Shown here piece after piece: positions 174 through 27,030 of a stretch of 32,000 nt of DNA. Both the position numbers and the translations under genes were made by a program. Positions within the stretch are counted from its first letter, which is position 1, and every line of letters starts with the position of its first letter. The notes under the pieces were generated by a model that was not told the DNA's origin, did not search any database, and saw only the letters and a program-made list of their open reading frames with translations. This stretch comes from Candidatus Methylomirabilis oxygeniifera. GTDB lineage: Bacteria > Methylomirabilota > Methylomirabilia > Methylomirabilales > Methylomirabilaceae. The stretch lies in NCBI GenBank assembly GCA_000091165.1, contig FP565575.1, positions 1,110,001 to 1,142,000 on the forward strand, given 5' to 3'.

Positions 174-1346
174 TCAGCTCGCCCAGCCGAACTGCCAGTA
201 GTATTTTTTGAAGGTGTCCACAGGAATCGCAAACACGCCGCCGGAATTCAACGGAACGCTTCGCCAGAAGCTCTGATCGTACGCCGACCAGTTACCTGCG
301 AGACTGTTGATAACAGGGCCGTTGTGTCCCCAGGGATTGCGGAGTACGATGTACCTGATGTTGTTCACGAACGCCCAACCGAGGATCGTGTATGCATGGT
401 AACCAACGATGCCCGTGCCGGTGTAGTCCACCGGCGCAGGAGTGACACAAAAGGTCCAGGCAGTCATCGGGTTTATCGTACGATACGAGAGGCAGTTGGA
501 GCGCACGCTGCTCCAGACTTGGTCGGCTGTAAGGGCGGAGCATGTCTTCGTGACGCCGGCTAAGTTCGTCAACTCCGTGGTCGCCTGAACTGGCCAACCT
601 CCTGAGATCGGCCCATAGTTTGGCTCGTCAGTGGTATCGTTGGTCTTCCACTTGGCGAAGGCCTTCTCGTACACAGCCGGCCAAATCTCGCCTGCTTCTG
701 CGGAACGTGCGTATATCCACGCATGGGTGCCCTTCACGAGCGGTACGCGCTCGGTCACCTCCATTGACTTCGTTCCGTTGGAATAGAAGTCGATACGATC
801 GAGGAAGTCTTGTTGGTTGGTGCCGGTAGCGCGTTGGCGCAAGGCGATCACATACGGTCGCGACCACGCCACCGCGGAGAGCGCGGCGATGAAGTAACAG
901 TCGCCAAGTCCGCCCTGAACGGGATCGAGAAACTCAGCGCCCTCCTCGAAGTAATCCCCGGGATCGGCCCACTCGGATCCGGGAGGAGTATACTGGGGTC
1001 CCTCACCTTTCTCCGCGCCTGCCAGCGCTGCGATTATACGCGCCTGCGCCTCCGGAGAGAGTTTCGCAAGCATCGTTTCTACCGGACCAGCCTTGGCGTG
1101 CGATCGGAACGCTACGTTTCTATCGGCCTTCCTCTCGTGGATGTCAGCGAGGACCTTGTGAGAGTCCGCTGCGCCACTGAGCATCAGGTTGCCTGCCACT
1201 GGTGCACACAGCTTGTCGATCGACACGCCGAGTGTCTTCTCGACAAAAGCCTCATGATCTGTAATCGACTTCCAATTCACCCTGCGACCAACTGCCAGTT
1301 CCGCCAGGGCGTACGGATTTGCCAGACCAACTCTCGACTCGTTCAT
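174..1346 (-). CDS. Calpain-like cysteine protease (peptidase family C2, clan CA), no signal peptide
   Basis: 390-aa ORF. All three calpain triad motifs are present: GGLGDCYFIAALSAV (Cys), GIVGYHAYTILG (His) and IVLRNPWG (Asn). AAGGAG Shine-Dalgarno lies 7 nt upstream of the ATG at 1346. Confidence 0.85.
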   Translation of the reverse strand: MNESRVGLANPYALAELAVGRRVNWKSITDHEAFVEKTLGVSIDKLCAPVAGNLMLSGAADSHKVLADIHERKADRNVAFRSHAKAGPVETMLAKLSPEAQARIIAALAGAEKGEGPQYTPPGSEWADPGDYFEEGAEFLDPVQGGLGDCYFIAALSAVAWSRPYVIALRQRATGTNQQDFLDRIDFYSNGTKSMEVTERVPLVKGTHAWIYARSAEAGEIWPAVYEKAFAKWKTNDTTDEPNYGPISGGWPVQATTELTNLAGVTKTCSALTADQVWSSVRSNCLSYRTINPMTAWTFCVTPAPVDYTGTGIVGYHAYTILGWAFVNNIRYIVLRNPWGHNGPVINSLAGNWSAYDQSFWRSVPLNSGGVFAIPVDTFKKYYWQFGWAS

Positions 1347-3371: not shown

Positions 3372-3388
3372 AACAAGCGGCATGCCAA
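3372..3388 (-). promoter_or_regulatory. Sigma54-type promoter, copy 2, upstream of the membrane protein gene
   Basis: Minus strand reads TTGGCATGCCGCTTGTT, identical to copy 1, and lies 62 nt upstream of the ATG at 3310. Confidence 0.6.
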
Positions 3389-3791: not shown

Positions 3792-5210
3792 TTATTCGTC
3801 TGAATCCACTCGCCGGGCACCCCAGGGAATCTGATAGGCCTTCATTCGGCGCCACAGTGTGGTGCGGCTGATCCCGAGGTCTTTGGCGACTAACGCGAGA
3901 TTACCGTTTCGCGACCGGAGTTGTTCTAGAATATGGTCTTTTTCAACCTGCGTCAGGGTCGGACTCCCCGCTGCGTGGGAAGGATCACCGGGTCTCGGCA
4001 GCCATTCGTCGAGATCGAGCCGCGACCCATTGCTGAGAAGGACCGCTCGCTCTATCAGATTCTGTAGCTCCCTGACGTTACCCGGGAAGTCATAGTCCAG
4101 CAGCCGCTGCATCGCCTCTTGGCTCAGTCCCATGACGGGCTTTTTCAGCTTCTTGCACTGTTTTTCCAAAAAATAGTCGACCAACAGGGGAACATCTTCT
4201 CTTCGTTCCCGTAAGGGAGGAGTTCTGATGGGAAACACACTCAGGCGGTAGTAGAGGTCCGCCCGGAAGGCGCCCTTTTTGACTTCTGATTCCAAGTCTC
4301 TATTGGTCGCCGCAACGATTCGGACATCCACCTGCCTGGATTCGGTCTCCCCGATCCGCCGCATCCTGCCATCCTGAAGCACCTGAAGCAGCTTCACCTG
4401 CATCGTGGGGCTCATTTCGCTGACCTCGTCCAGGAAGAGGGTCCCTCCATCCGCCACCTCGAAGAGCCCTTTCTTGTCCTGCACAGCCCCCGTAAAGGCC
4501 CCGCGTCGATGGCCAAATAGCTCACTTTCCAAAAGGGTCTCCGGGAGCGCGCCGCAGTTTTGCTCGATAAACAGCCTCCCTCGTCTAGGGCCACGATGGT
4601 GGAGGTGGTGGGCGATGACCCCTTTCCCTGTTCCTGTTTCTCCGGTGAGGAGGATCGTGGCGGAGCTGTCGATGACCTTCTCTATGAGATCGAAGAGCCG
4701 CCTCATAGCCGGGCCATGGCCGATGATGGTATCCGAACGGGGATCCTTTTCGACCTCCTGCTTCAGATACAGATTCTCCGTTTGCAGTCGTTCGTTGGCC
4801 GCCTGAAGCTCCTTGAGCAGCCGCTGATTCTCCATGGTCAGCTCATAGCTTTCGAAGGCGCGCTTGACGGTAATTTTCAACTCATTCCGATCCCACGGTT
4901 TAGTGATATATCGATAGATCCTCCCGGCATTGATGGCTCGGATAAGGGACGCGGTGTCGGTGTAACCCGTCAGGATCATCCGGATAGCCTGGGGACGCTT
5001 GGTAATGGATCGCTCCAGAAATTCGACGCCTGTCATCTCCGGCATCCGCTGATCCGCGATGATGAGGGCGATCTCCTGCCGGTCCAGGATCGTCAGTCCT
5101 TCAGCGCCACTGCCGGCCTGAAAGACATCATAGTCCTCCTCGAACGTAAGGGAGAGGGTGGTCAAGATATCGCGTTCGTCATCCACGATCAGCATCCCGT
5201 ATCGGTTCAC
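3792..5210 (-). CDS. Sigma54-dependent response regulator (NtrC family: REC + AAA+ sigma54-interaction domain + Fis-type HTH)
   Basis: REC domain (LIVDDERD...IIADQRMPEMTG), Walker A GETGTGKG, GAFTGA loop (RRGAFTGA) and C-terminal HTH (LALVAKDLGISRTTLWRRM). Start is GTG at 5210, or alternatively ATG at 5195. It begins 1 nt after the kinase stop. Confidence 0.95.
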   Translation of the reverse strand: MNRYGMLIVDDERDILTTLSLTFEEDYDVFQAGSGAEGLTILDRQEIALIIADQRMPEMTGVEFLERSITKRPQAIRMILTGYTDTASLIRAINAGRIYRYITKPWDRNELKITVKRAFESYELTMENQRLLKELQAANERLQTENLYLKQEVEKDPRSDTIIGHGPAMRRLFDLIEKVIDSSATILLTGETGTGKGVIAHHLHHRGPRRGRLFIEQNCGALPETLLESELFGHRRGAFTGAVQDKKGLFEVADGGTLFLDEVSEMSPTMQVKLLQVLQDGRMRRIGETESRQVDVRIVAATNRDLESEVKKGAFRADLYYRLSVFPIRTPPLRERREDVPLLVDYFLEKQCKKLKKPVMGLSQEAMQRLLDYDFPGNVRELQNLIERAVLLSNGSRLDLDEWLPRPGDPSHAAGSPTLTQVEKDHILEQLRSRNGNLALVAKDLGISRTTLWRRMKAYQIPWGARRVDSDE

Positions 5211-5211
5211 T

Positions 5212-7341
5212 TTATACCCCGCTCCACTTTACCGGAAGTTCAATGGTAAACTCCGTTCCCTGGCGATCTGGACTCGATACGCGGATGGTGCCGCCATGTT
5301 TTTGTATAATCCCATAGCTGATGCTGAGGCCCAGGCCCATCCCTTCCCCCACCTTCTTTGTGGTAAAGAAGGGATCAAAGATCTTCGACAGATTCGACTC
5401 AGGAATGCCGTGCCCGTTATCCCTGATGACGATGATGACCGTATCTCCATGGGAAGCCGTTCTGATCCAGACTTCTCCAGTCTCATGAATGGCTTGAGCG
5501 GCGTTGAGCAGCAGATTCATGAACACTTGATTGATCTGGCCAGGATGACATTCCACCTGAGGCAGGACTCCATACTCGCGATGGACAGTGATCCGATCTC
5601 TATACTCCTTTACAAGGAGGTTGAGGGTTATCTCAAGTCCTTCATGTAGATCGGCAGGCGCAGGATCGACATCATCCGCCCTGGCAAAGGTCCCGAGGTC
5701 CATGACAATTCTCTTTACCCGTTCTGTCCCCCGCTTGCAACTGGAAATCAACTCATCCAATGTATGAAGAGTCCGGTCGAGTCTGGCCCCTTTTTTCAGC
5801 TCTGCGAGATGCCGATAGGCGGGACTATCGGGCAGTTCGACCGTCTCATAGGCCTCAAGCACTCCTTTAAGGTTTAGAATATATTCGGCTATGAAATCGA
5901 TGTTACTATGGACGAAGCTGACGGGATTATTCAACTCATGAGCAACCCCCGCTACCAGAAATCCCAAAGAGGCCATCTTCTCCGTTTGGAGAAGCTCATT
6001 CTGGGTCTGGGCCAGCTCCTGGAGGGTCTTCTCCAACTCGTGATGCCCTTTTACCAGCTCTTCGTTTGTCGCAGCAAGTTGGGCGGTCCGCTCCTTGACC
6101 TTTTGGTCCAGCTCCCGGTTCATCGCCTCCAGGGCGAGACGTCGTTCCCGCTGGGCAGAGAAGACCTGAGCGATCAGATACCCGCCGTAGATCAGACCGA
6201 ACTGACCCGTGCCGGCGAAGACAGGAAGCCAAAGATTCCCTTTGACAAATAGCCCATATGCGACTACGAGAAAAAGCGCAGAAAGGCAGAGGAGCGCTCC
6301 GAGGGCCCAGAGCGGCTTGAGACGGAGGGCAATGACACTGCCGATCAGGGCCAAAAGAAAGAGGAGACTATACCGCACCCCTGAGGAGGGTTCGTGTACC
6401 ATCCGATCTGCCAAGAGGTTAGCGACGATCGTTGCATGGATCTCAACCCCGGCGGTGGGACCGCCTACGTGAAAGGAGAACGGAGTAGGGAAGACATCCG
6501 GAGAGGTTCGTTGCGGTTCCGGCGCCGCCTGGATGGCGCGGCCGATCAGGACAATCTTGTCGGAAAAGGTCCCCGGCGGAAGCATCCGATCAGCCTCGAG
6601 GGCCTGGTAGTAAGAGATCGTCTTGACGGTCCTTGGGGGACCAAAATAGTTGATCAGAATCGCCTTCGAGAGATCGGTCCGGATTCCATGCGGCTTCTGT
6701 CGTAGGTAGAACCTGACGATTTGATCGGAGAACGAGGGAAGGACGGAGGAGACGGGAAGGGGTCGTCTCACGGTCCCGTCAGGGTCGATGGGAAGGGTGG
6801 CGATTCCCACTGACGCGGCCGATCTGAAGGGTTCGATGGGATCGACAAGGATCGTCTGACGAAAGAGCGGATCAGCGGTGACGGACTGCTCGCTGGCGAG
6901 GACGACGTTTCCAGCCTCCCGAATGGCCCGTGCCAACGCCCGATCGTCCTCAGGCTGGGAAGGTTCTGCGAAGAGAATATCGAAGGCGATGACCCTGGCC
7001 CCCGCCTTCTTCAGGTGATCGATCAGGCGGGCATGAAGGCTCCGAGGCCAGGGCCACTGCTTCGAGATCTCGGCAAACGACGGCTCATCGATGGCGACAA
7101 CAACGACCTCAGGTGGAGGCGCCATGGCGCCACGGAGCATAAAAAGGAAGTCCAACCCTTTCAGCTCGAATAGGGAAAAGAGGGGGAGATTGGCTAGAAC
7201 GAGCATCACCGCAAAAGTCGGCATCACGATGAGGGCAGCTTGCAGCGCAGGCCACACTCGATCATTGCTGGCCACTAATATCCCCACATGGTCTACTCGA
7301 GTGAATGATGGCGCCCACATCACAGATGTGGGCGCCATCAT
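5212..7341 (-). CDS. CHASE2-domain sensor histidine kinase
   Basis: The N-terminal region is CHASE2-like ([10 protein letters not shown]...[29 protein letters not shown]), followed by TM segments and a coiled coil. Kinase motifs are the H-box [12 protein letters not shown]-box [10 protein letters not shown]1 DNGHGI and G2 GMGLGLSIS. The exact start is uncertain because there is no strong SD. Confidence 0.9.
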
Positions 7342-7469: not shown

Positions 7470-7724
7470 CTACGGCTTAGGGAAACAGTACAATTTCCCG
7501 CCTTGAATGAGACAGATAGTAGGATTCGTGGTGGTAACAATGGTGACGCTGGTAATGTTCTCCACCGACTTGCCGTCCAGGTTAGCTCTCATGCCCTTCG
7601 GGATGTTTTCACCTTCCTTCTTTTCATGGTGAGGATGGATTACTCGACCCATCCCCTTACTGACGCCGCCCTCATAAACCTCGGTAATGTTTCCCTGGTT
7701 GTCGAACTCCACTGTGAATGCCAT
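7470..7724 (-). CDS. Small hypothetical protein (84 aa, C-terminal CxxxxxxxxC) between the barrel gene and the kinase gene
   Basis: The ATG at 7724 is preceded by AAGGGAG 8 nt upstream. The track ORF extends to a GTG at 7808, which sits directly on a GGAGG and so has no spacing. The protein has no signal peptide and no recognised family. Confidence 0.55.
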   Translation of the reverse strand: MAFTVEFDNQGNITEVYEGGVSKGMGRVIHPHHEKKEGENIPKGMRANLDGKSVENITSVTIVTTTNPTICLIQGGKLYCFPKP

Positions 7725-7849: not shown

Positions 7850-10800
7850 CTAAAACGCCACGGTCAACCGAAACAGGACCTGACGTTCTGGTGCTACCGT
7901 CGGACTACGAGGATCTGTATCCTGAAAGTGGAAGCGATTGTCGAACAGGTTTCTCACGTCGAGGGTGAGCAGGCCCCTTCGGTTAGGCAAGCGATAGCCG
8001 ATAGAAGCGTCAACGACCCAGAACCGATCGCTACCGGCCAGGACATCACCTGTAAGCCGATTCTGGAACTCTCCCTCCTGATCGACGTAGGTAGTTTTGA
8101 GCCGCGCCCGGAGGCCTGACGAGTGGAAGAAGCTCAATCCCAATGGAACCCGATGGGTATGGGTCATTGCTATTCCTTCCTCTCCAAACGCCACACGTCG
8201 CCTAAACCGTTCGTACTGATACTCGGCACTGATCGCAAGCCAGGCCCTTGGAGTCCAGTAGAGGTAGGCCCGTCCCAGGTCCTCTTCCCAGTCCCTGTCT
8301 CGATATTTCCCTTCCCCTGGTGCGAAGCCCGGCGCGTCGGTATCCCGCCGCGAAAACTCCGCCCCTCCAAACAGGGCCGTGGAGAGCTTCTGATCGACGG
8401 CAACACCGTACCGCCACGCTTCTGTGCCGTTCACGTCGTCAAAGAACTGATTGAAGCCGGCCACCTGGGTCGGCTCGATCGTTTGATCCGACAGGAGGGA
8501 TCGCTTCAGGACCCTGAAGACAGCGGCCCGCAGGGTTGTATCGGGAAACGGGTTCCAGGTTACCCCGAACTTCGGGTTGAACTGGTTTCGCTCGAGAACA
8601 GAAAGGACCTTTCGATCATCCTTGTTTCGGGTCGTAATCTTGAAGAAATCGGCGCTCCCGCCCAAGGTCCACGTAACATTATGCGGAAAGTTGATCAGGG
8701 AGTAGAGATAAAGATTGGTATGGCGATTATCATCTTCTGTCAGTGCTAAGGGGAATGACAGGAAACTGGTTACGTCCGTACGATCGGCGTCGAAATGACC
8801 GGCCCCGCTGATCAGATGTAATCGTTTCCAACGGAACAAATACTGAATCTCTCCCATGAAGCCGTCCGTGTCCGTCAAGAGGTCAAACCCCTTGACCATG
8901 AAGTTACGGGTGTCAAAATCAGCGTTTCGGTAGATGCCGGATGCGATAAGGTGAGAGTCGGGTGTAAAGGCATGATGAAGACCCAGTCGTATCGATCGGG
9001 TCCGATCATCCTGTTTTTGATCCGGAAAGAAATTGTTCCGATCGAATCGCAGCGGCAGGTCGCCTCGCTCAAAATCCTTGTATCTGAACTCTGCCTGGAC
9101 GCTGGTACTTGGCGAGAGGCTCATCTGGACAAAAGCGTTGTAGATGTCCTGGTTCTGGTCGTTATTTTTTCGGAATCCGTCGGTCTCCTGATGGAACTGG
9201 CCAAGACTATAGGAAACGTTTCCATGGACACCAGAGAGGACCACTTCATCACCAAGTGTGTCCTTTTCTCCAGCGGTTCCCGACGCCAGGAGGCTCACCC
9301 GATCGCGGACAAATAGAGGATTAAACTCATTCAACGAGGGATCTTGCGGCCCGGCACTGTCTAGAATAAAGAGATTGCTTTCCGCCAGTTGCGGCTGCAC
9401 CGGGGTAATGCTGATCGGTTGAAGAAGCTGGGACTGGAGCAGCTCACTCACCCTGGCGACCTCATGGCGAGGTAGGGCAGCATAGGAGTCAGACAGGAAC
9501 CGATGGGCCGAGTAGTTAGATGGATCCTCAATGGCTGCCTTCCATCCTTCAACTAACGCAAGCTGTTGGAATCCCAGCTCATTATACACTCTGGCAAGAG
9601 TCGCGCCCCGCGCCGCGAGATCCTGATCCATCAACAGGCGTGATCGGTAAACCGCACGATTGTCATTCAGCTCGATCGATCGCTGTAGATCCTGCATCGC
9701 CTCTACTGGACGGTTGACGCTTTGCTTGCGAATGGCGTCATAGAGCCATGGGGTGGGATCGTTCGGATCCAGTGTCTTGGCAATCGCCAAGGGATCCATC
9801 TCTAACGGATAACGTTTCACCTCGTAGAGCGCTTTCCCTAGATAGCTCCAGAATAAGGCAACTTTGGGCTCCAGGAGGGTAGCCATCCACATCTCCTGCA
9901 CTGCCTCCTCTGTCTTATTCTGCCTAAAAAGCGCGAGGCCGCGGCCGAGGTGAGGCTCTCCGCGCGTGGAATCCTGCTCAATCGCCTGGCCAAAGGCCGA
10001 GAGCGCTTCCTGGACCTTCCCCTGGGTCAACATGAGGAAGCCCCATGTGCTGGTGATAAGGGGATCGTGGGGTGCCCTTTGACGGGCCTCCTCAACCAGA
10101 CTTAATGCCTCGGAGAGCCTTCCGAGGCCAAAGAGGAGGCGGCTTACCTGGATCATGGCTACAGGGTTGTCCGGCTCCAACTCCAGTGCCTTCCTGGCGG
10201 CCTGAAGCGCTTCCTCCAGACGGAACTCGGCCTGCTTGACCAGGCTCAGGTCGAGATAGGCCGAGGCGGAGGACGGATTGGCGAGGATCGCCTGCAGCGC
10301 CGCTTGCTGCGCTACCCCCTTCTCGTTCCGAACCAGGGCAATATTGGAGCGAAGACCATGAGCCGGCGCGTAGCCTGGATCGAGGGCCACGGCATGCTCT
10401 AACTCCTGGAGCGCCTTGCCCACCCGGCCCTGAATGAGGTAGAGAAGAGCCGTCTGAGTCGGCGGCTGTGGGGAGGATGGGAAACGACTTTTGGCCTCAG
10501 CAACGACCTCTTCCATCTCATCAAAGCGATTAAGTCGATAGAGGGCGTTGGCCTGTCCCATAAGGGCTGAAAGGGTAGGAGGCGTCGCTTGCCGAAACGT
10601 TCTCAAGGCCTCCTCGGTCCTCCCTTCCACCAGGTAGACCCACCCCAGACCTGTGAGCGCCCTCGGGCTCCCCGGATCAAGGGTTAGGGCTTTCTCAAAT
10701 CCTCTTCGTGCCTCGACCGGTTTGCCCAGATCGAAGAGGATCTCGCCCAGCGTGACCGTCGACTCCGAATCCGCCAGTCTCGAAGCCGCCCTTCGTTCGG

Positions 10801-11512
10801 CGTCGACCAACCGTTCCGGGAGAAGATTCGGCGCGACGCCGGTCAGAGGATAATCCCGGAAGCCGACAATCCCGGGGTAGTAAAGGGACCATTGGACCGC
10901 ATCGATGGGCCTCAGGAGGATGGTCTTGCTTGGGGGTTCGCCTACCCTGGCCGTGGCCGCCTCTCCCGCCCTCACCATGACACCCCCCTGAGGATTGCGA
11001 AACTCAACCACCCCCTCGAGTACGGCAAGACGGGATTCATTGCCTGGATCGACCGAGAGGTCAAACTCCGTTCCCCGGATCGTTGCCGTCACCGCCGGCG
11101 TTCGAATCTGCAAGGGCCTGCCGCGACTTCGACTCCAGACCTCTCCCTTCAGCAGGTTGAGGATGGTCTGCATGGGGCCCGCCGCCGCACGGGTCGCGCT
11201 CCCGGGGGGCGACATGACCTCTGTAATCTCCAGGGTGCTGTTGGAATTGACCTTGATCTGTACTTCGTCCGAGAGGAGGATGGCCGCTCGACTTCCCGGA
11301 CCCGTCCTCACCACATCTCCAGGCATGAGGACGTGCCGGAGCGCTACCGGCTGCCACTGCTGGACCCGGAAGATCTCAACCCTTCCCACGACGCTCACAA
11401 TTCTCCCTGCTTCTTGGGCCGTTGCAACACTGATGCTCAACATAAGCCAGACGATCGAGCAGAGGAGGATGGGAAGGACTCCGCGCTGGGTTGGGACTTG
11501 GCGACAATTCAT
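7850..11512 (-). CDS. Secreted FecR-domain + TPR-repeat + C-terminal outer-membrane beta-barrel fusion protein (1220 aa)
   Basis: Signal peptide (LLCSIVWLMLSISVATA/QEAG). FecR-like N-domain (GRIVSVVGRVEI...PGDVVRTGPGSRAAILL...VKVNSNSTLEI). About 450 aa of TPR-like repeats follow (e.g. ALTLDPGSPRAL, ALELEPDNPVA, AIEQDSTRGEPHL). The C-terminal ~450 aa are rich in alternating beta-strand patterns and end in the OMP signature LFRLTVAF. GGGGAGG SD lies 9 nt upstream. Confidence 0.85.
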   Translation of the reverse strand: MNCRQVPTQRGVLPILLCSIVWLMLSISVATAQEAGRIVSVVGRVEIFRVQQWQPVALRHVLMPGDVVRTGPGSRAAILLSDEVQIKVNSNSTLEITEVMSPPGSATRAAAGPMQTILNLLKGEVWSRSRGRPLQIRTPAVTATIRGTEFDLSVDPGNESRLAVLEGVVEFRNPQGGVMVRAGEAATARVGEPPSKTILLRPIDAVQWSLYYPGIVGFRDYPLTGVAPNLLPERLVDAERRAASRLADSESTVTLGEILFDLGKPVEARRGFEKALTLDPGSPRALTGLGWVYLVEGRTEEALRTFRQATPPTLSALMGQANALYRLNRFDEMEEVVAEAKSRFPSSPQPPTQTALLYLIQGRVGKALQELEHAVALDPGYAPAHGLRSNIALVRNEKGVAQQAALQAILANPSSASAYLDLSLVKQAEFRLEEALQAARKALELEPDNPVAMIQVSRLLFGLGRLSEALSLVEEARQRAPHDPLITSTWGFLMLTQGKVQEALSAFGQAIEQDSTRGEPHLGRGLALFRQNKTEEAVQEMWMATLLEPKVALFWSYLGKALYEVKRYPLEMDPLAIAKTLDPNDPTPWLYDAIRKQSVNRPVEAMQDLQRSIELNDNRAVYRSRLLMDQDLAARGATLARVYNELGFQQLALVEGWKAAIEDPSNYSAHRFLSDSYAALPRHEVARVSELLQSQLLQPISITPVQPQLAESNLFILDSAGPQDPSLNEFNPLFVRDRVSLLASGTAGEKDTLGDEVVLSGVHGNVSYSLGQFHQETDGFRKNNDQNQDIYNAFVQMSLSPSTSVQAEFRYKDFERGDLPLRFDRNNFFPDQKQDDRTRSIRLGLHHAFTPDSHLIASGIYRNADFDTRNFMVKGFDLLTDTDGFMGEIQYLFRWKRLHLISGAGHFDADRTDVTSFLSFPLALTEDDNRHTNLYLYSLINFPHNVTWTLGGSADFFKITTRNKDDRKVLSVLERNQFNPKFGVTWNPFPDTTLRAAVFRVLKRSLLSDQTIEPTQVAGFNQFFDDVNGTEAWRYGVAVDQKLSTALFGGAEFSRRDTDAPGFAPGEGKYRDRDWEEDLGRAYLYWTPRAWLAISAEYQYERFRRRVAFGEEGIAMTHTHRVPLGLSFFHSSGLRARLKTTYVDQEGEFQNRLTGDVLAGSDRFWVVDASIGYRLPNRRGLLTLDVRNLFDNRFHFQDTDPRSPTVAPERQVLFRLTVAF

Positions 11513-11667: not shown

Positions 11668-11937
11668 TCAAAGCAGGGACGCTATTTGGGACTCGTGAGA
11701 AAAGGTTAAAGCGCGTGCGCGCGCGGCTGCCGCCGTGCGCGTCCCCACCCCAAGCTTCTCGAAAATATGCTCCAGGTGCTTTTGTACCGTCCGTGGACTG
11801 GTATCGAGAATCTCTCCAATCTCAGCATTGGTCTTCCCATCGGTTACCCAAGTGAGTACCTCCACCTCCCGGCGCGTCAGACCGAGGCGTTCAGAGAAGA
11901 TGTTGTCGTGAAACCATCTCGTGCTGATCCTGTCCAT
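11668..11937 (-). CDS. Stand-alone LuxR/GerE-type HTH transcriptional regulator (89 aa)
   Basis: LTRREVEVLTWVTDGKTNAEIGEILDTSPRTVQKHLEHIFEKLGV matches the LuxR C-terminal HTH. The ATG at 11937 has a GAGGAGG SD 5 nt upstream. The longer track ORF start at 12003 lacks an SD. Confidence 0.85.
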   Translation of the reverse strand: MDRISTRWFHDNIFSERLGLTRREVEVLTWVTDGKTNAEIGEILDTSPRTVQKHLEHIFEKLGVGTRTAAAARARALTFSHESQIASLL

Positions 11938-12102
11938 AGCTACCTCCTCTGATTCGGTTATCAGGTTTACTCTCGGCACGTGAACCGGGTGCTTGGTCGC
12001 CATTGAACAACTCAGGGCTGCCGCGTCTCAGCATCTTCTGACCGGAGGGTGTAGTCAACGTCGGACTTGACTCGTCGTCAAGTCACGGCAACTGTATCCA
12101 TT

Positions 12103-12119
12103 AACAAGGGACATGCCAA
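12103..12119 (-). promoter_or_regulatory. Sigma54-type promoter, copy 3, upstream of the LuxR-type gene (and possibly the whole sensor operon)
   Basis: Minus strand reads TTGGCATGTCCCTTGTT. It lies 166 nt upstream of the ATG at 11937. Confidence 0.55.
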
Positions 12120-12227: not shown

Positions 12228-12264
12228 TGAAACATAATGTTTCACGCGGTTTCACTCTGAAACA
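12228..12264 (-). promoter_or_regulatory. Upstream activator sequence, copy 3
   Basis: Plus strand reads TGAAACATAATGTTTCACGCGGTTTCACTCTGAAACA. It lies 108 nt upstream of promoter copy 3. Confidence 0.6.
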
Positions 12265-12574
12265 TCGGCGCTATAGGGATGTTGATAGCTCATCCGGTGA
12301 ACGCTGACCGTTCCGATCCAACCCGCACAGCCATTACGAGGACGAGTTCTATTTCGGAGTAACCGTAGTGGACGGGTAGGGTGAATTCGGTAAGTGTCGA
12401 GCAACAAGCAAAGAGGGGAGGGAAGCAGACAGCAGGGGTAACGGGCAGAATCCCAGTGGTGTGAGTCGCCCTGTCGGTGTACACACGGAATCTGACAGGC
12501 TTTCATCTGGAGCCACAAGACGTCAGCAGGCGAGCATTACTGGACTATCGGCGGTCTGCCGATCGAGCTGTGAC

Positions 12575-13790
12575 TTAGAACCGCCAGGTGAGCTTGGCCA
12601 AGACGCTGCGCTGGACCTCTGTCGAATTGAAAGGATCTCCGATGCCTATCTTTCCGAACCCCGGATGCCGGTCGTCCAGGAGATTCTGGCCGATCACGCC
12701 CAGATCCAGTGCGCTCGTGGGACGACGGTAGAGGTATTATCCATGGCGTCGATCGTCCCGCGCGTGTCAAAACCCCAGATGATATCGTGAGCCGCGCCCA
12801 AACCGAACCGGGGCTGGACATTGAGGTCGACCGTATCGCGAGCCTCTCGGATAATCTGGCGCCGGTCCGTTCTGTCATAGTAAAACTGTACTCGGAACTC
12901 CGATCCGTCGATCAGGCGCCGCCGCCATCGCGTCAGAATGTTGCCGCCCGCGAAATCGTCTCTGCTGTCACGCGTCGATGCAAAGGGAGGCGCGAGCTGG
13001 GGGGCAGTCGTCGTCTCGTTGAAATTACCCGTGTAGATGTTCTCCATGGATGGTGACCGAATCGCGCGCTGAGGCGTCCCAGTCGATCCGGAAGCCGCCA
13101 CGATACAATTCCCAACTATCGGCGGCATCTCGATCGTTTGCGGTGACGAAGTGGTCGCGATCGAAATACTTCGCATAGGCCCGGTAGTGCGCCGCCTCTG
13201 ACAGCTTCCCGCCGCAACGCAGTCCGACAAACCCCTGTTCCTCATTGCCGATCCCACCTTCAAGGTAGCCGCCCTGGGTCGTGCCGGCGTGCTTGGTAAT
13301 GATATTAATGACACCGTTGATGGCATTGGCACCCCAGAGCGTTCCGCCGGGCCCGCGGATCACCTCGATCCGGTCGATATCCTCCAGTAGGGTATCCTGC
13401 ACATCCCAGAAGGTCCCGGCAAACAGCGGCGTGTAGACGGTCCGGCCGTCGATTAGGACCAGCAGCTTATCTGCGAAAAGGCCGTTGAATCCGCGAGCAG
13501 AGATGGTCCACTTGTTGGCGCTGAACCGTGCGACCTGGATACCAGGCGCCACGCGTAACGCCTCAGGAATGCTGGTGACGCCGGATCGGCGGATCTCCTC
13601 GCCAGTAATAACGTAAGCGGCTGCAGGACTACTCTAGAGCGGTTCTTCCTTGATGAGCGCTGAGATGAGTTCTGCTCTCCGGGCGTATCGCTTGAGCCTC
13701 ACGCCATCTACCCCGCTTCCCGGGCCAGGTTCGGCCCGACATACTACAAGGGTAAGACCAACGGTTAGAACCGGACAGGCTGTCAGAATC
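12575..13790 (-). pseudogene. Degraded TonB-dependent receptor (plug domain, barrel fragments, C-terminal TonB-dependent-receptor signature)
   Basis: The plug is AAAYVITGEEIRRSGVTSIPEALRVAPGIQVAR...IEVIRGPGGTLWGANAINGVINIITK. It is preceded by an in-frame TAG at 13634-13636 and a signal-like stretch with no start codon. The reading frame changes at least twice (ORF fragments 13025..13552, 12694..13332, then a third frame). The third frame ends NLLDDRHPGFG...AKLTWRF* at 12575. Only about 1.2 kb remains. Confidence 0.75.
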
Positions 13791-14022
13791 AGTGCTGAAT
13801 TAACAAATTACAGGCGCCTATCGCGTATCGTTACAAATGAGAGCTGGCGTGCCCACGTCACATGATTCCGAGATGGAGTATCTGACGCAAACCCATGTCA
13901 AGACTATAATGCAGCCCACCAGGCAACAGTCTTGAGTGTTTTTTGTGCGAGGAATCGCGGTCGCACCTTTAGGCGGGAAGAAGTAGAGGCGAGGCGGCTG
14001 TGACATGCGCGGGATATATCGA

Positions 14023-15871: not shown

Positions 15872-15888
15872 AACAAGCCGCGTGCCAA
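15872..15888 (-). promoter_or_regulatory. Sigma54-type promoter, copy 4, upstream of the 375-aa gene
   Basis: Minus strand reads TTGGCACGCGGCTTGTT. It lies 237 nt upstream of the ATG at 15635. Confidence 0.6.
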
Positions 15889-21840: not shown

Positions 21841-22086
21841 ATGCCTAAGCGCACAAGCAAGAAGCCGCCCTCTGATATTAACCTGCTCGCCGTCTCAGTC
21901 GTTCAGGCGGCAACCGGAGAGAAACCCGCTAGTGAGAGCATCCCGCAAAAGAACCCTGCCGCTGTAGCCCTGGGTCGATTGGGTGGGCTGAAGGGTGGGA
22001 AGGCCAGGGCCAAGAAACTCTCTGCGAAGACAAGATCATTAATCGCCAAGAAAGCCGCGAAGGCCCGTTGGGCTAGACAGAAGTAG
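21841..22086 (+). CDS. Small, highly basic hypothetical protein (81 aa)
   Basis: The C-terminal motif is NPAAVALGRLGGLKGGKARAKKLSAKTRSLIAKKAAKARWARQK. It is the first gene inside IRL and has a consensus promoter immediately upstream. Confidence 0.55.
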   Translation: MPKRTSKKPPSDINLLAVSVVQAATGEKPASESIPQKNPAAVALGRLGGLKGGKARAKKLSAKTRSLIAKKAAKARWARQK

Positions 22087-22198
22087 CTTTTCTATGTCAT
22101 AAGTGACAAGCGGCGGACATCTCAACAACGGAGAAGATTCTGAGCTTTTAGAAAGGATTTTTGATTTTAGGATTTATCTACTTGGTTCCCCTTGATCC

Positions 22199-22843
22199 CT
22201 ATAAGGTGACGACCCGCCACGCCGCCTTTTGGTGCAAAGCAGAGAACGATAACCGAACCCGGAAGTCCTCGCCGAGGGTGGGTGCGTTGCGGCCGACCCT
22301 CCAAATGGTATCGTTTTCGTCCGGGTTGTATTGATCTTGAAACACCCCGCTTGGGATACAAGCTATCTTTATCTGCTTCAGCAACGACCCCTTCCCATCG
22401 CCCTTGTAAATGTATTTAACGACTATTGTCACCGTCTGCATCTTCACGCCAGACCTTTCAATGAAGGTCGGCAAGCCGCCCTTAACTTTTTCGACCTTTC
22501 CAGCCCTGTGCTGCCGCACTTCCATTGACGTTTGCGACATCTGAATCGTGGCTGTGTTACCGTCCTTTTCAGCCTTCGAGTCAATCATTAAGGCAACTTC
22601 CGTTTCTCTATCTGGCAGAAACACGAGAGCGGCCCGTTTATAATCGATTTTTCCGTACAGGCGGATATGCACTCGTGAAAGTCCGAGGAAATCTAACGCC
22701 TCCCGGGTAATGTCTTCTGCAACATCAGCGGCCAGATCAGTTTCCTCGCGGAATATTTTGACCGCCTCTTTGTGATAGTCGCGGATCGCCCGAACAACCA
22801 GGCGAAGGCACGAGCGTTCTACCTCCTCAATCTGAATCTGCAT
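22199..22843 (-). CDS. Putative type II restriction endonuclease (PD-(D/E)XK candidate)
   Basis: It lies immediately downstream of the methyltransferase and overlaps it. A candidate catalytic motif is FLPD-x9-DSK. The start is uncertain: ATG at 22843 or TTG at 22867. No family recognised by eye. Confidence 0.6.
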   Translation of the reverse strand: MQIQIEEVERSCLRLVVRAIRDYHKEAVKIFREETDLAADVAEDITREALDFLGLSRVHIRLYGKIDYKRAALVFLPDRETEVALMIDSKAEKDGNTATIQMSQTSMEVRQHRAGKVEKVKGGLPTFIERSGVKMQTVTIVVKYIYKGDGKGSLLKQIKIACIPSGVFQDQYNPDENDTIWRVGRNAPTLGEDFRVRLSFSALHQKAAWRVVTL

Positions 22844-23843
22844 TTTCACGGGTTCTGGATTCTGCAAGCTTGGTGTATTTTTTCAGCCTATCAATTCCGA
22901 TGTATTTGCGCTTCAGTTTGTGCGCCATCCTGGTCGTGGTCCCCGACCCAACGAACGGATCAATCACAACGTCGCCAGGATCGGAGAACAAACGGATAAC
23001 GCGCTCTGCCAGCATCTCTGGAAACTCGCACTCATGGCGTCCGTTCCTTTGGACTGACCGTATGTTCCAGACGCCCCTCGATCCCCATTCAGCCCATTCA
23101 TTCTTCTTGAGGCGATTACGGTCAACGTCAATTATCCCCGGTTTCCAGAATACGTACAGGTATTCAAACTCATCCACCGCACGGTAAGAATTGCTGTGCC
23201 ATCGGCTATTGGCCCAACAAGGGTCTTTGTGCCAGATGCGGCGGTCATAGAGATATAGACCGACCGACTCAGCCCATCCCTGCAATAGACCTCCGACGAC
23301 AAACACCTTTGTCCCAGCCTCATACTTGCCGCCGCGCACGTTGTTATGTTCCGCACGGCGCTGAATGGTTTGCTCGCTGCACCCGAACAGCTTCGCCAAC
23401 TCATAACGGCTTGCCTTCGGATGCTTCTTCATTGCGGCAAGCACGTCTTCCCGCGTGATGGCAATCTTCTTGTTGCTGATGTTATTTGCCATGTAACGCG
23501 GCATCTCTGTGTCGGTGAAGCAAAGAATGTCGCTGATATTAATCACCATGAAGGAGCCGGACTTCATGACACGCGCATGCTCCACGATTACGCCGCGCAG
23601 AAGTTCTTGCCACTGCTGGAAAGTAAGGTGTGCCTCGTAATTCTTGCCAACGAAGTACGGCGGAGACCAAAAACTCAAATCTATGCTTGCTGCTGGAAAC
23701 GACCGCAGCACAGCAATGGAATCGCCTGTGTAAATTCTGTTGACGTGGTTTTCGTCGGCGAGTAGTTGGGCTTTCGCTGCTGTTGGCCTGCATGCCAACA
23801 CAACGTCAGTAATCGCATTTAGAGCAGCTAACTCACTCCTCAT
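22827..23843 (-). CDS. Beta-class N4-cytosine/N6-adenine DNA methyltransferase (N6_N4_Mtase type)
   Basis: Motif IV SPPY (DLSFWSPPYFVG) precedes motif I (VVIDPFVGSGTTTRMA), which is the beta-class order. An HTH-like insertion (ASRYELAKLFGCSEQTIQRRA) lies between them. Confidence 0.92.
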   Translation of the reverse strand: MRSELAALNAITDVVLACRPTAAKAQLLADENHVNRIYTGDSIAVLRSFPAASIDLSFWSPPYFVGKNYEAHLTFQQWQELLRGVIVEHARVMKSGSFMVINISDILCFTDTEMPRYMANNISNKKIAITREDVLAAMKKHPKASRYELAKLFGCSEQTIQRRAEHNNVRGGKYEAGTKVFVVGGLLQGWAESVGLYLYDRRIWHKDPCWANSRWHSNSYRAVDEFEYLYVFWKPGIIDVDRNRLKKNEWAEWGSRGVWNIRSVQRNGRHECEFPEMLAERVIRLFSDPGDVVIDPFVGSGTTTRMAHKLKRKYIGIDRLKKYTKLAESRTRENADSD

Positions 23844-24013
23844 GAGGTCAACTCACAATAAGTGGTCCGACTCCCAACCGTTGCATCTACGAAGCTGCCT
23901 AGCCTCTTCAAAGTATAATACAATATATTACCATCATTTATGCGAAAGATAAATTCATCGATTAGAGATTTGATCGTGGAGAGAAATTGTGCAGTGAAGA
24001 GCTTGTCTGCCAT
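23840..24013 (-). CDS. Possible 57-aa ORF translationally coupled to the methyltransferase
   Basis: Its stop TGA overlaps the methyltransferase ATG (ATGA), and the methyltransferase itself lacks an SD. The sequence is AT-rich and no family is recognised. Confidence 0.3.
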   Translation of the reverse strand: MADKLFTAQFLSTIKSLIDEFIFRINDGNILYYTLKRLGSFVDATVGSRTTYCELTS

Positions 24014-24197
24014 GCCTTTACACCTTGTTTTAGCTTTCTGAATAGGAGAGGAATCGTCCCACAAGCTCAAGCGTGCATATCAAGCGGTTTTTGAAGCTGG
24101 GAGGGGGGATTACGAGTAGTGAAGAAATAACTAGACAGATGGGCAGTATTATGTCATTTTACTTAACATGCAACCTGAGTAAAGGGAGGAGATCAAA

Positions 24198-24821
24198 ATG
24201 GCAATATCGGCTACTGAGCTTGCGCGGATCTTCGATGGTTCTGTTTCAAGGCAGATTCAAGAAGCGTTGGTCAGGTGTGTCTTTGGCAGCTACCGGACAG
24301 CCCACGATGAGTGCTCGGGATTCCCTGGTGAAGAAGCTCATGACCTACTCCCCTATTACCGATGGATTCAGCTTCGCTCAGATTTACGAGGAATGACCAA
24401 TCGCTTTGATGGTGTTCACGCTAGCGCTGAACGTTACCATACGCTCCTCCATGTTGGACGGATCTTACTCACAGCTCAACGCGTTGACGGGCCTGAAGGA
24501 TTAGTGCGTCCATCAGTTTACCGACTGGCTTATGCGGCCAGCAGTCAATTGGAACTCTTTGAACAGAACACGCCGCCGCCGGATGACGCCTTATTCTACG
24601 CCATCCTACTGCATGGTCCTGATCCGCGAGAAGCGAAGCAGCCGCTCTTTGCTCAAATCGCATTCCCAGACAAAACCCTTCAGTCCTACGTTCACAAGAT
24701 TGATCTGTTTTCCAGATTTGAACCCGTAATCGACAGCCTTCGCATTGCTCATGAAGAGGGCGGAGGCCAAGATGTGACTATCCAACTCCGCAAGGCGGCC
24801 AAAAAGCAAAACGTGTCATGA
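24198..24821 (+). CDS. Hypothetical 207-aa protein, first gene of a two-gene module
   Basis: A strong SD (GGGAGGAG) lies 7 nt upstream of the ATG. Its stop overlaps the next gene's start (ATGA). No recognisable motifs. Confidence 0.75.
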   Translation: MAISATELARIFDGSVSRQIQEALVRCVFGSYRTAHDECSGFPGEEAHDLLPYYRWIQLRSDLRGMTNRFDGVHASAERYHTLLHVGRILLTAQRVDGPEGLVRPSVYRLAYAASSQLELFEQNTPPPDDALFYAILLHGPDPREAKQPLFAQIAFPDKTLQSYVHKIDLFSRFEPVIDSLRIAHEEGGGQDVTIQLRKAAKKQNVS

Positions 24822-26050
24822 AGCCCGGGACGCCAGGATTCAACGGCGCCAGACTGCGCGAGGCGCGTGAGGCAAGAGGTCTGCCAGCTATAGCGTTGGC
24901 TGATCTCATCGGGGTCACTCGTGCTGCTGTTTCTCAGTATGAGAATAGTGTTCAAACGCCGCGACCAGAAGTTATGGAAAAGATCGCCAGAACGTTGCAG
25001 CTTCCTCAAGAGTATTTCCGCCGACCAATAAGTCGGATCGAGAGAGGAGCCATTTTCTATCGGTCCATGAGTGCTGCCACCAAGGCGGCGAGAGCACGAG
25101 CCGAATGTCGCTATTCTTGGTTGCGGGAGATCGTAACCTATCTGAGAGAATTTGTGCAATTCCCTCCCATGAATATTCCAGATTTCAATTTGCCAGATGA
25201 TCCGGTCCGAATCTCTTACAACCAAATAGAAGAACTTGCTACGCAGAGCAGACAATTTTGGAAGATCGGTGAAGGGCCGATAGGCAATGTGGTTAGGCTT
25301 CTCGAAAACAACGGTATCGTTGTGGTCCGCGACGAACTTGGGGCTGAAACCCTCGATGCTTTCTCTGAGTTCAATGCTGAGGATGGAACGCCATACATTA
25401 TCCTGGGCTCGGATAAAGCCGTGGCGGTACGATCTCGTTTTGATGCTGCCCATGAACTTGGCCACCTTATCCTCCATCGGAACATCAACAAGAATCGTCT
25501 TTCTCGACCGACCGATCATCAGCTAATCGAGACACAAGCCCATAGGTTCGCTGGAGCCTTCCTGCTGCCAGGGCAAGCATTCGCAAGCGAATTTTACTCA
25601 GCAAACCTTGATGCACTCAGGATCTTAAAGCCGAAATGGAAGGTCTCAATTGCTATGATGGTCAAGAGAGCCGAGGATTTGGAGTTTATATCATCTGAGC
25701 AGGCTAAACGCTTATGGATAAATTATTCGCGTCGCCGATGGAGAGCAAAAGAACCTCTCGACGGCGAACTCGAAGTTGAGCAGCCCCGTCTATTGGTTCG
25801 AGCATTTGAATTACTCCTCAACGAGGGGATTCAAACGTGCGAACAGATCCTTTCTCATTTACCACTCAACCCAAATGATATTGAAGCCTTGGCTACTCTA
25901 TCAGGCCAGCTTACCAAGACGTCTGCCGATGAACCCTCAGTGCGTGTTCTTGATTTGACTGGCCGCACTCGCCAAAAAAGCCAGCACCAGATCGATAAGC
26001 CAGGACAAGTCATACAATTTGCAGCCCGGAAACCGCATCCAACTGGTTAG
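24818..26050 (+). CDS. XRE-family HTH fused to an ImmA/IrrE-type (M78, COG2856) zinc metallopeptidase domain
   Basis: The N-terminal HTH is LREAREARGLPAIALADLIGVTRAAVSQYENSVQTPRPEVMEKIARTL. An HEXXH motif occurs in RSRFDAAHELGHLILH. About 150 aa of C-terminal extension follow. Confidence 0.9.
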   Translation: MKPGTPGFNGARLREAREARGLPAIALADLIGVTRAAVSQYENSVQTPRPEVMEKIARTLQLPQEYFRRPISRIERGAIFYRSMSAATKAARARAECRYSWLREIVTYLREFVQFPPMNIPDFNLPDDPVRISYNQIEELATQSRQFWKIGEGPIGNVVRLLENNGIVVVRDELGAETLDAFSEFNAEDGTPYIILGSDKAVAVRSRFDAAHELGHLILHRNINKNRLSRPTDHQLIETQAHRFAGAFLLPGQAFASEFYSANLDALRILKPKWKVSIAMMVKRAEDLEFISSEQAKRLWINYSRRRWRAKEPLDGELEVEQPRLLVRAFELLLNEGIQTCEQILSHLPLNPNDIEALATLSGQLTKTSADEPSVRVLDLTGRTRQKSQHQIDKPGQVIQFAARKPHPTG

Positions 26051-26087
26051 ATAGGCAAGAAAAATGGTTCCTGGGGTTATTTCTCTC

Positions 26088-26116
26088 TTGACATGCTTGA
26101 CCGCTCAAGCTATATT
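26088..26116 (+). promoter_or_regulatory. Sigma70-type promoter TTGACA-17-TATATT driving a leaderless transposase mRNA
   Basis: The -35 TTGACA is at 26088-26093, followed by a 17-nt spacer and the -10 TATATT at 26111-26116. The ATG at 26123 is 7 nt after the -10. This is the same layout as the promoter at 21806. Confidence 0.5.
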
Positions 26117-26122
26117 ATAAGT

Positions 26123-26953
26123 ATGAACAGATTGAGTAAGGACAAGCGAGCACAAGTGGTAGCCGCCCTAGTCGAGGGCAACTCGATTCGGTCCACCGTC
26201 CGCATGACGGGCGTCGCCAAAGGCACGGTCTTGAAGCTACTGGCCGATCTCGGAGCGGCCTGTAGTGAATATCAGCGGCAAGTCCTTGTGAATCTTCGTT
26301 GCAAGCGGATTCAGTGTGATGAGATCTGGTCCTTCTGTTATGCCAAGGAAAAGAACGTCCCTGAGCACATGAAGGGCAAACCCGGAGTCGGCGACGTGTG
26401 GACCTGGACGGCTATGGATGCTGACTCAAAGCTAATGATCTCATGGTTGGTAGGCGAACGTGATGCAGGATACGCCACTGAGTTTATCAATGACCTCGCC
26501 GCACGGCTCGCCACTCGGGTTCAACTCACCACGGATGGTCTGAAGGTTTATCTGGAGGCTATAGAGGGTGCTTTTGGGGCCGACATTGATTATGCCCAAC
26601 TGGTGAAACTGTTTGGAGAGGCACCCGAGCAAGAGAAGCGGTACAGCCCGTCTCAGTGCACCGGATGCCAGAAGAGGCGCATTGATGGGAGTCCTGATCC
26701 TCGGCACGTCTCGACATCGTTTGTGGAGCGACAGAATTTAACCATGCGAATGAGCATGAGAAGGTTCACACGGCTTACCAATGCGTTTTCAAAGAAGGTC
26801 GAAAACCTGGAAGCCGCCGTAGCCCTTCACTTCATGTGGTACAACTTCGGGAGAATCCACCAAACCCTTCGAGTGACCCCGGCGATGCAAGCAGGAGTTT
26901 CCGACCATGTATGGACAATCGAGGAGATTTTAGACTTATTGGATTCAAACTGA
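26123..26953 (+). CDS. IS1-family DDE transposase (single fused ORF)
   Basis: N-terminal HTH (GNSIRSTVRMTGVAKGTVLKLL). The DDE context is CDEIWSF, TTDGLKVY and FVERQNLTMRMSMRRFTRLTNAFSKK. This parallels the IS1 InsB motifs DEMW / TDGW / [24 protein letters not shown]. Confidence 0.9.
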   Translation: MNRLSKDKRAQVVAALVEGNSIRSTVRMTGVAKGTVLKLLADLGAACSEYQRQVLVNLRCKRIQCDEIWSFCYAKEKNVPEHMKGKPGVGDVWTWTAMDADSKLMISWLVGERDAGYATEFINDLAARLATRVQLTTDGLKVYLEAIEGAFGADIDYAQLVKLFGEAPEQEKRYSPSQCTGCQKRRIDGSPDPRHVSTSFVERQNLTMRMSMRRFTRLTNAFSKKVENLEAAVALHFMWYNFGRIHQTLRVTPAMQAGVSDHVWTIEEILDLLDSN

Positions 26954-26962
26954 CCCACTACC
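26944..26962 (-). repeat. Right terminal inverted repeat (IRR)
   Basis: TTCAAACTGACCCACTACC is the exact reverse complement of IRL. It contains the transposase stop codon at 26951-26953. Confidence 0.85.
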
Positions 26963-26970
26963 CGGAATCC
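26963..26970. repeat. Target-site duplication, right copy (CGGAATCC)
   Basis: It is identical to 21768-21775 and directly abuts IRR. Confidence 0.75.
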
Positions 26971-27030
26971 GTTTCCCTTGCAGATCGCCGCCGGCCATGA
27001 TAGAAATGAAGAGAATGACCGTCACGACAC

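Follow-up and report, generated by a model that had tools for sequence, protein, structure and literature searches.

A 32,000-nucleotide stretch of the genome of Candidatus Methylomirabilis oxygeniifera (GenBank assembly GCA_000091165.1, contig FP565575.1, positions 1,110,001 to 1,142,000; hereafter the window, with positions counted from its first letter) encodes on its minus strand a 1220-aa protein that joins a FecR domain, a tetratricopeptide repeat (TPR) arm, and a C-terminal membrane barrel in one polypeptide. This architecture is real yet not new: the window protein joins a widespread, barely studied family whose sole studied member is most likely NsrA of Sinorhizobium meliloti, here with a kinase output. 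We consider it likely, at a probability of roughly 0.6, that the protein serves as an NsrA-like co-receptor anchored in the outer membrane, coupling the cell surface or outer membrane to an inner-membrane CHASE2 kinase encoded two genes downstream.

The gene is a single unbroken open reading frame (ORF) with an ATG start (7850..11512 (-)). An earlier note on this DNA had described a cleavable signal peptide, a FecR domain, TPRs, and a C-terminal membrane barrel in that order, and the sequence, Pfam, and AlphaFold2 (AF2) bore this out. Its sizes of ~450 aa each for the TPR region and the barrel were roughly right, the AF2 values being ~470 and ~483 aa. The AF2 model of the mature protein had a mean predicted local distance difference test score (pLDDT) of 85.2 and a predicted template modeling score (pTM) of 0.79. 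We aligned 42 full-length homologues, used them for this model, and quote positions in full-length numbering. The features of the protein are:

aa 1-32, 11417..11512 (-): signal peptide, read from the sequence, with cleavage predicted between ATA and QE (MNCRQVPTQRGVLPILLCSIVWLMLSISVATA before the cut, QEAG after it)
aa 36-198, 10919..11407 (-): FecR-type beta-sandwich, AF2 strands at mature positions 4-166
aa 66-170, nt 11003-11317 (-): Pfam FecR domain PF04773, E 7e-16, 58.9 bits against a cutoff of 24
aa 146-149, 11066..11077 (-): R-G-T-E motif, invariant in the 42 homologues
aa 228-697, 9422..10831 (-): TPR solenoid of 28 helices (~470 aa), AF2 helices at mature positions 196-665
aa 698-737, 9302..9421 (-): conserved linker QPISITPVQPQLAES...NEFNPLFVRD, a 40-aa coil in AF2 with pLDDT 53-82
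aa 738-1220, 7853..9301 (-): 22-stranded barrel (~483 aa) like that of TonB-dependent transporters (TBDTs), without a plug, from AF2, Foldseek, and Pfam
aa 1003-1030, 8423..8506 (-): loop 7, ...QTIEPTQVAGFNQFFDD..., the longest loop, on the presumed extracellular side, with several invariant residues

Read by eye, residues 1-32 have the n/h/c layout of a Sec signal, with a basic n-region, a hydrophobic core, and an AxA cleavage site; the consensus of the homologues at this point is ...PALAQEAG. The FecR domain starts directly behind the signal peptide in both the sequence and the AF2 model, and its PF04773 match confirms the FecR relationship that had been claimed for the N-terminus. Within the invariant motif, G147-T148 pairs with G181-T182 of Escherichia coli FecR in a weak BLASTP alignment (...TATIRGTEF against ...LTALGTEF, E 0.055). 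In E. coli, G181-T182 is the site at which FecR cleaves itself (PMC8144685), and self-cleavage at the GT site is non-enzymatic in FecR and FoxR (PMC8144685, PMC11637429). By analogy, the invariant G147-T148 could self-cleave, and signaling could, speculatively, include the regulated loss of a FecR fragment.

Many Pfam TPR families match the window protein at aa ~240-620, and its helical part resembles OGT, SPINDLY, and consensus TPR proteins in Foldseek and PDB sequence matches. The 22 AF2 strands of the barrel cover aa 738-1219, and the protein ends in ...LFRLTVAF, with an NLFD motif preceding the last strand. F1220 is the last residue of the predicted barrel, in agreement with the terminal aromatic residue pointed out previously. 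According to the AF2 strand list, all ten turns facing the N-terminus have 2-5 residues. The loops on the opposite side are mostly 2-8 residues long, the exceptions being loops 3, 7, and 11 (16, 28, and 23 aa; loop 11 begins with NLFD).

The only barrel family to pass its Pfam cutoff in the window protein was TonB_dep_Rec_b-barrel (PF00593), at aa 808-1005 with E 1.4e-11 and 45 bits against a cutoff of 27. In Foldseek searches of the PDB, the barrel matched 22-strand TBDTs only (E 1e-14 to 6e-18), among them FpvA (2o5p, E 6e-18), FecA (1kmp and 1po3), FptA, BtuB, FhuA, and OprC. A pairwise BLASTP comparison of the barrel with E. coli FecA yielded no significant match; the relation to TBDTs rests on the Pfam profile and the fold. 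The Plug domain (PF07715) was not among the best 25 families of the whole-protein Pfam scan, which reached down to E 0.0067, nor was it found in aa 620-1220 at a maximum E of 10, a setting at which the HMMER filters discard most matches above about 0.1. Under the same setting and limit, aa 620-1220 gave no match to a DUF560 or BcsC barrel. Because there is no plug, a TonB box has no canonical place, and a short degenerate motif is possible by sequence alone.

The earlier note had likened the protein to BcsC, PgaA, and the Slam/DUF560 family and had proposed counting the barrel strands in an AlphaFold model. The model does contain a membrane barrel, of 22 strands, and the comparison with these families was not supported. 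These proteins share with the window protein a periplasmic TPR region followed by a C-terminal outer-membrane barrel, as does AlgK-AlgE. The barrels of BcsC, PgaA, AlgK-AlgE, and Slam have 14-18 strands (16 in PgaA and BcsC, 14 in DUF560) and belong to unrelated families, and the proteins have no FecR domain, whereas the window barrel is TBDT-like and its conserved gene context holds no synthase genes. Identity with PgaA or BcsC was also rejected at the level of NCBIfam, where the matches were confined to the TPRs (33.6 bits against a cutoff of 367 for PgaA, 20.8 against 858 for BcsC), and identity with Slam/DUF560 was rejected on the strand number and the missing DUF560 match. With 22 strands and matches only to TBDT barrels, the C-terminus is, as modeled, a plug-less membrane barrel of the TBDT type and not of the BcsC/PgaA/Slam class.

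Conservation, taken as the mean majority-residue fraction among the aligned homologues, was highest in the FecR domain (0.71), jointly with the 29-aa junction behind it, followed by the linker (0.68), the TPR region (0.65), and the barrel strands (0.51). The periplasmic parts (0.65-0.71) thus lie above the barrel, which fits a conserved periplasmic partner. Only two surface-side loops stand out, loop 2 (8 aa) at 0.79 and loop 7 (28 residues) at 0.73.

A protein search with the window protein returned at least 399 matches, and all 120 among the matches listed had E values of 2e-241 or better. Many of those listed were full-length at 40-83% identity and had the Pfam content of the window protein. 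Homologues from Methylomirabilota were ~65-72% identical, and Competibacteraceae were also among the sources; those records that are named go by "tetratricopeptide repeat protein," "TonB-dependent receptor," or "FecR domain-containing protein." In GTDB genomes taken one per species, at least 594 stretches were confirmed as relatives. Among the matches listed, the records were labeled as Acidobacteriota, Nitrospirota, Desulfobacterota-type lineages (including the complete genome of Desulfosarcina alkanivorans PL12), Ca. Brocadia, Rokubacteria, Competibacteraceae, Methylococcales, Burkholderiales, Poribacteria, Binatia, and others. When the linker and barrel (aa 690-1220) were searched against 1.84 billion cluster representatives (clusters at 50% identity), 2,916 proteins matched at E ≤ 1e-3, of which 1,255 reached E ≤ 1e-30. 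Full-length proteins among them were mostly 1,060-1,175 aa long and were matched at their C-terminus. The FecR-TPR-barrel architecture is common and spans many phyla.

A tblastn search of plasmids with the window protein led to pSymB of S. meliloti, where the matching gene is that of a protein of 1190 aa, annotated as "FecR domain-containing protein," in which Pfam places FecR at aa 66-160 and also finds TPRs. A coding sequence with CHASE2 and Guanylate_cyc domains immediately follows. In BLASTP, the two proteins aligned over FecR and TPRs (E 3e-31) and over the barrel to the very C-terminus (E 3e-5), and hhalign of the family profile against the pSymB protein gave a probability of 100% (E 1.4e-45) over 1044 collinear columns. 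The nsrA gene is reported to be smb20775, located immediately upstream of cyaK (Garnerone et al. 2018); a search for "smb20775" found nothing. The pSymB protein is most likely NsrA, on the grounds of its size, its replicon, the neighboring CHASE2 cyclase, and the reported place of nsrA beside cyaK, not of a locus tag. NsrA is an outer-membrane receptor needed for the CyaK-dependent perception of a proteinaceous signal, with its barrel portion at aa 600-1200 (PMC7529298, PMC13001267, PMC10463352), and NsrA-dependent signaling in S. meliloti responds to added purified proteins (PMC7529298).

The two proteins are alike in length (1190 and 1220 aa) and in the order of signal peptide, FecR, TPRs, and C-terminal barrel, and both genes adjoin a CHASE2 sensor gene. 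They differ in sequence (24-27% identity) and in output, the partner in the window being a CHASE2 histidine kinase with a sigma-54 regulator and that of NsrA a cyclase with Clr. The window also has an additional small ORF, encoding a Cys hairpin, between the barrel and CHASE2 genes, and its organism is free-living and of Methylomirabilota kinship, whereas S. meliloti is a plant symbiont. The claim that the architecture was an unrecognized, unusual one largely fails, because the family is common (at least 594 relatives in the one-genome-per-species GTDB set and 2,916 clusters at 50% identity) and one full-length homologue, putative NsrA, has been characterized genetically. What characterization the family has is still limited to genetics in a single species, where the output is a different one. 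In the record of S. meliloti R14 pSymB (L006:8952-11419), the CHASE2 and cyclase parts of the presumed cyaK lie in two overlapping frames with no protein listed, so that this record may contain a frameshift or an error of sequencing.

The genes around the barrel gene in the window are:

11668..12003 (-): stand-alone LuxR/GerE-type helix-turn-helix (HTH) protein, 111 aa, Pfam GerE E 1.4e-18, just upstream of the barrel gene
7470..7724 (-): small ORF, 84 aa from an ATG at 7724, between the barrel and kinase genes
5212..7341 (-): CHASE2 sensor histidine kinase, 709 aa, Pfam CHASE2 E 8e-59, HATPase_c E 9e-27
3792..5210 (-): NtrC-type sigma-54-dependent response regulator (REC, AAA+, Fis-type HTH), Sigma54_activat E 2e-69, Response_reg, HTH_8

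The CHASE2 kinase that the earlier note had placed next door is therefore present, its gene lying 509 nt downstream of the barrel gene with the one small ORF in between. By Pfam and hydropathy, the kinase has a transmembrane segment near aa 29-63, CHASE2 at aa 44-333, and a hydrophobic block at aa 319-374, followed by HisKA and HATPase_c. The stop-to-start spacing of the kinase and regulator genes suggests translational coupling of the regulator to the kinase gene, and no terminator-like site was found on the minus strand between the barrel, small ORF, kinase, and regulator genes. This four-gene module also occurs in the Methylomirabilota contigs L001 and L002 and in Gammaproteobacteria (L003, L004, L011, and L061), including Competibacteraceae and a Thiorhodococcus metagenome-assembled genome. 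The GerE gene is kept in Methylomirabilota relatives only, at a position shared with L001 and L002.

We built a CHASE2 hidden Markov model from the module loci and ran it on 80 genome loci, 51 of which have at least 3 kb on both flanks. A CHASE2 gene lay within 6 kb in 41 of these 51 loci, on the same strand in 38 (directly upstream in 31, downstream in 7). In most of the paired loci the same ORF also matched a class III cyclase catalytic domain, which was verified by Pfam for Desulfosarcina and Brocadia. The partner in the window is not such a CyaK-type cyclase; it has HisKA and HATPase_c and is followed by the sigma-54 regulator, a variant common to L001-L004, L011, and L061. The kinase-plus-sigma-54 output is a minority wiring carried by the clade of the window protein, and outside this clade the partners are mostly CHASE2 proteins with a class III cyclase domain. 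The gene tables of the loci read showed neither a polysaccharide synthase nor a glycosyltransferase, the other ORFs of the window having been scanned in part. Together with the CHASE2 pairing across phyla, this upholds the proposal of a sensory rather than an export role. No TonB, ExbB, ExbD, or ABC importer genes were found nearby in the window or in the relatives' loci examined, and no gene for an extracytoplasmic function (ECF) sigma factor is adjacent, the neighbors being the GerE HTH protein, the small ORF, the kinase, and the response regulator.

The small ORF ends in a Cys-x9-Cys hairpin, TICLIQGGKLYCFPKP. Scans of Pfam and NCBIfam assigned it to no family, a profile search of a database of 5.8 billion proteins found only 18 unnamed clusters, and its AF2 model was poor (pLDDT 51). 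Positional homologues are present at L001:13860-14111, L003:11351-11599, L005:11804-12109 and 12244-12654, and L011:9621-9929, and also in L048. The small proteins of this slot have 82-136 aa and are poorly conserved in sequence, their position being kept across the kinase-type loci; they share a Cys...Cys beta-hairpin pattern, GCYVW-IGGK-VW-DPCP. One of the L005 copies has a signal peptide, which is absent from the other copies. Two loci from Competibacteraceae have a PatG-like subtilisin (Peptidase_S8, PatG_D, PatG_C) in this slot and, behind it, a Cys-rich ORF of 72-82 aa:

L004:11499-13538 and 13604-13822: PatG-like S8 peptidase and Cys-rich ORF
L061:9166-11192 and 11189-11437: PatG-like S8 peptidase and Cys-rich ORF

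A Cys-rich ORF behind a PatG-like peptidase recalls a modified-peptide precursor, which hints at a linked peptide. The kinase-type subfamily might then be a self-contained system for sensing peptides or proteins at the cell surface, in which the Cys-hairpin protein would be a self-made signal or a removable plug of the barrel, and its arrival or departure would be read by an auto-cleaving FecR domain and passed to CHASE2. We regard this as quite improbable. If true, it would amount to a quorum-like, outer-membrane-gated two-component pathway and provide the first defined ligand logic for a CHASE2 domain.

Upstream of the module we found a promoter-like site, with similar sites elsewhere in the window:

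12103..12118 (-): sigma-54-like promoter TGGCATGTCCCTTGTT, upstream of the GerE gene and the barrel operon
1676-1691, 3372-3387, and 15872-15887, all (-): similar sites, intergenic and correctly oriented

The four sites are near-identical, TGGCAYGNNNCTTGTTA, and each has a conserved AGTTAGAGAAnCTG block upstream. Behind them lie a 45-aa ORF with the gene of a calpain-like protease, the gene of a 379-aa polytopic membrane protein, the GerE/barrel operon, and the gene of an unknown protein of 375 aa. The motif and its AGTTAGAGAAnCTG block recur at the corresponding intergenic places of L001 and L002, relatives with 70% identity (L001:656, 8759, 18020). The canonical sigma-54 pattern showed no enrichment (29 matches against 27 expected), and only the extended conserved variant TGGCAY-N5-TTGTTA, at the four intergenic sites, looks meaningful. 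The neighboring sigma-54 response regulator probably drives the four promoter-like sites. The protease encoded downstream of one of them (174-1346 (-)) is a bacterial calpain-family cysteine protease (Peptidase_C2, E 5e-21), and the 45-aa ORF preceding its gene has a strong ribosome-binding site.

The window protein can be set beside several other signaling systems. It shares with FecA-FecR-FecI and FoxA-FoxR-FoxI a 22-strand TBDT-type barrel, a periplasmic FecR domain, and the passage of information from the outer to the inner membrane; as noted above, the FecR GT motif G181-T182 of the former aligns with the invariant G147-T148. In contrast to FecA-FecR-FecI, it carries the barrel and FecR on one polypeptide, and its barrel lacks the plug, the N-terminal signaling (STN) domain, and a TonB box at the usual place. 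Its FecR domain has no transmembrane anti-sigma part, and the output is a two-component kinase, not an ECF sigma factor. Burkholderia has a LysM-FecR protein whose gene accompanies that of a CHASE2 kinase, its FecR being tied to peptidoglycan via LysM (PMC5192318). Such LysM-FecR/CHASE2 operons (Burkholderia "BiofilmReg" and Pseudomonas aeruginosa PA4035/PA4036; COG4254 with COG4252) likewise place a secreted FecR protein beside a CHASE2 kinase and a response regulator (PMC5192318). Their FecR protein is small, LysM-anchored, and without TPR arm or barrel, and their regulator is of the OmpR/CreB type, whereas that of the window is sigma-54-dependent. In Campylobacterota, genes for a CHASE2 adenylate cyclase, a FecR protein of the outer membrane, and a protein with TPRs are clustered and have been proposed to form one pathway (PMC9239204). 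The domain set (CHASE2, FecR, TPR, outer-membrane protein) is the same as here, but the FecR outer-membrane and TPR proteins are encoded by separate genes, the output is cyclic AMP, and a phosphodiesterase is included.

In the co-receptor reading, the beta-barrel assembly machinery (BAM) would insert the barrel into the outer membrane, and the TPR arm would span the periplasm and hold out the FecR domain, which is strongly conserved, to the kinase's periplasmic CHASE2 domain. The contact between FecR and CHASE2 would be altered by an event at the barrel, perhaps the binding of a ligand to the conserved loops 2 and 7, or a peptide or protein entering the plug-less lumen. The kinase would then phosphorylate the sigma-54 response regulator, and the regulator would switch on a small local regulon with TGGCAY-N5-TTGT promoters, the barrel operon included. 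In evolutionary terms, parts of ferric-citrate-type signaling (TBDT barrel and FecR) are joined in one polypeptide, with a CHASE2 protein replacing the anti-sigma/ECF-sigma output.

Several observations weigh against this reading. No direct evidence for contact between a FecR and a CHASE2 domain was found here or in the literature consulted, and in 10 of the 51 well-flanked loci the nearest 6 kb hold no CHASE2 gene. Most of the presumed extracellular loops, at 2-8 residues, offer little surface for ligand binding, and a plug-less 22-strand barrel must be closed by something. The identification of the pSymB protein as NsrA is itself drawn from size, replicon, neighbor, and the reported place of nsrA. 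Finally, the -12 element of the promoter sites is TTGT and departs from the sigma-54 consensus TTGC, for which reason the sigma-54 regulon is put forward as a hypothesis.

The short loops would suit a protein that senses the state of the envelope, acting as a rigid ruler from the outer to the inner membrane, so that membrane integrity, periplasmic width, or peptidoglycan state would alter the FecR-CHASE2 contact with no extracellular ligand, in the manner of RcsF or NlpE. The better conservation of the periplasmic parts than of the barrel is consistent with this, as is the Burkholderia FecR partner of a CHASE2 kinase, which is anchored on peptidoglycan via LysM and not on the outer membrane (PMC5192318); the common factor would therefore be an envelope anchor plus FecR. 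The response of NsrA-dependent signaling to added purified proteins (PMC7529298) argues otherwise, and the strong conservation of loops 2 and 7 (0.79 and 0.73) suggests a specific function at the surface or in the lumen. A 22-strand barrel is also needless for a simple anchor, and we consider a pure envelope-state sensor rather unlikely.

An export channel like BcsC, PgaA, or AlgK-AlgE, with the small Cys protein as candidate cargo and the kinase merely regulating, would account for the layout of TPRs then barrel, which is that of known exopolysaccharide porins. The plug-less barrel could make a wide pore, and in kinase-type loci either the small Cys ORF or the PatG-like S8 peptidase with its Cys-rich ORF always lies beside the barrel gene. 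This account is nonetheless very improbable. It is contradicted by the TBDT-like 22-strand barrel, which is not of the 16-strand BcsC/PgaA type, by the restriction of the NCBIfam PgaA/BcsC matches to the TPRs, far under their cutoffs, and by the lack of a conserved synthase, glycosyltransferase, or inner-membrane exporter gene nearby in the examined loci. Most family members pair with a CHASE2 cyclase, and no comparable small ORF was seen in the few such loci examined; an exporter would also leave the FecR domain without a role. The label "TonB-dependent receptor" that some NCBI records give to homologues implies an unusual TonB-dependent importer, in keeping with the PF00593 match, the exclusively TBDT top matches of Foldseek, and the C-terminal NLFD...F signature. 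With no Plug domain found in the whole-protein or aa 620-1220 scans, the usual place of a TonB box taken up by the TPRs and the 40-aa linker that precede the barrel, and no TonB, ExbB, ExbD, or ABC importer genes nearby, we regard an importer as extremely unlikely.

CHASE2 is a very common extracytoplasmic sensor domain of bacteria. The factors that CHASE2 domains recognize are not known (PMC5192318). The window is further evidence that sensing by CHASE2 proteins is often not a solitary affair. They seem to have a partner with a FecR domain, and in this family that partner is carried by a plug-less TBDT-like barrel with a TPR arm reaching across the periplasm. The family thereby offers a useful handle on how CHASE2 sensors receive signals. 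Its carriers include organisms of environmental interest, namely relatives of the methane-oxidizing Methylomirabilota, anammox Brocadia, wastewater Competibacter, sulfate reducers, and Nitrospirota. The version with kinase and sigma-54 regulator, whose putative regulon is compact and lies within the window too, would be a convenient system for studying how a signal crosses the envelope; because it is not a new kind of system, its value is that of a tractable example and not of a discovery.

Two further regions of the window were noted. At 12694-13552 (-) lies a remnant of a genuine TonB-dependent receptor, with a partial Plug domain in the ORF 13025..13552 (E 1e-13). A second ORF, 12694..13332, overlaps it in another frame, matches no Pfam family, and may continue this remnant, its barrel character being read by eye; the remnant looks like a frameshifted or truncated pseudogene. 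At ~22000-27000, the G+C content is lower (0.49-0.53 against 0.55-0.60 elsewhere), and this stretch, which may be a mobile or defense island, holds an N6/N4 DNA methylase gene (22827..23843) and a gene with HTH and Peptidase_M78 (IrrE-like) domains (24818..26050).

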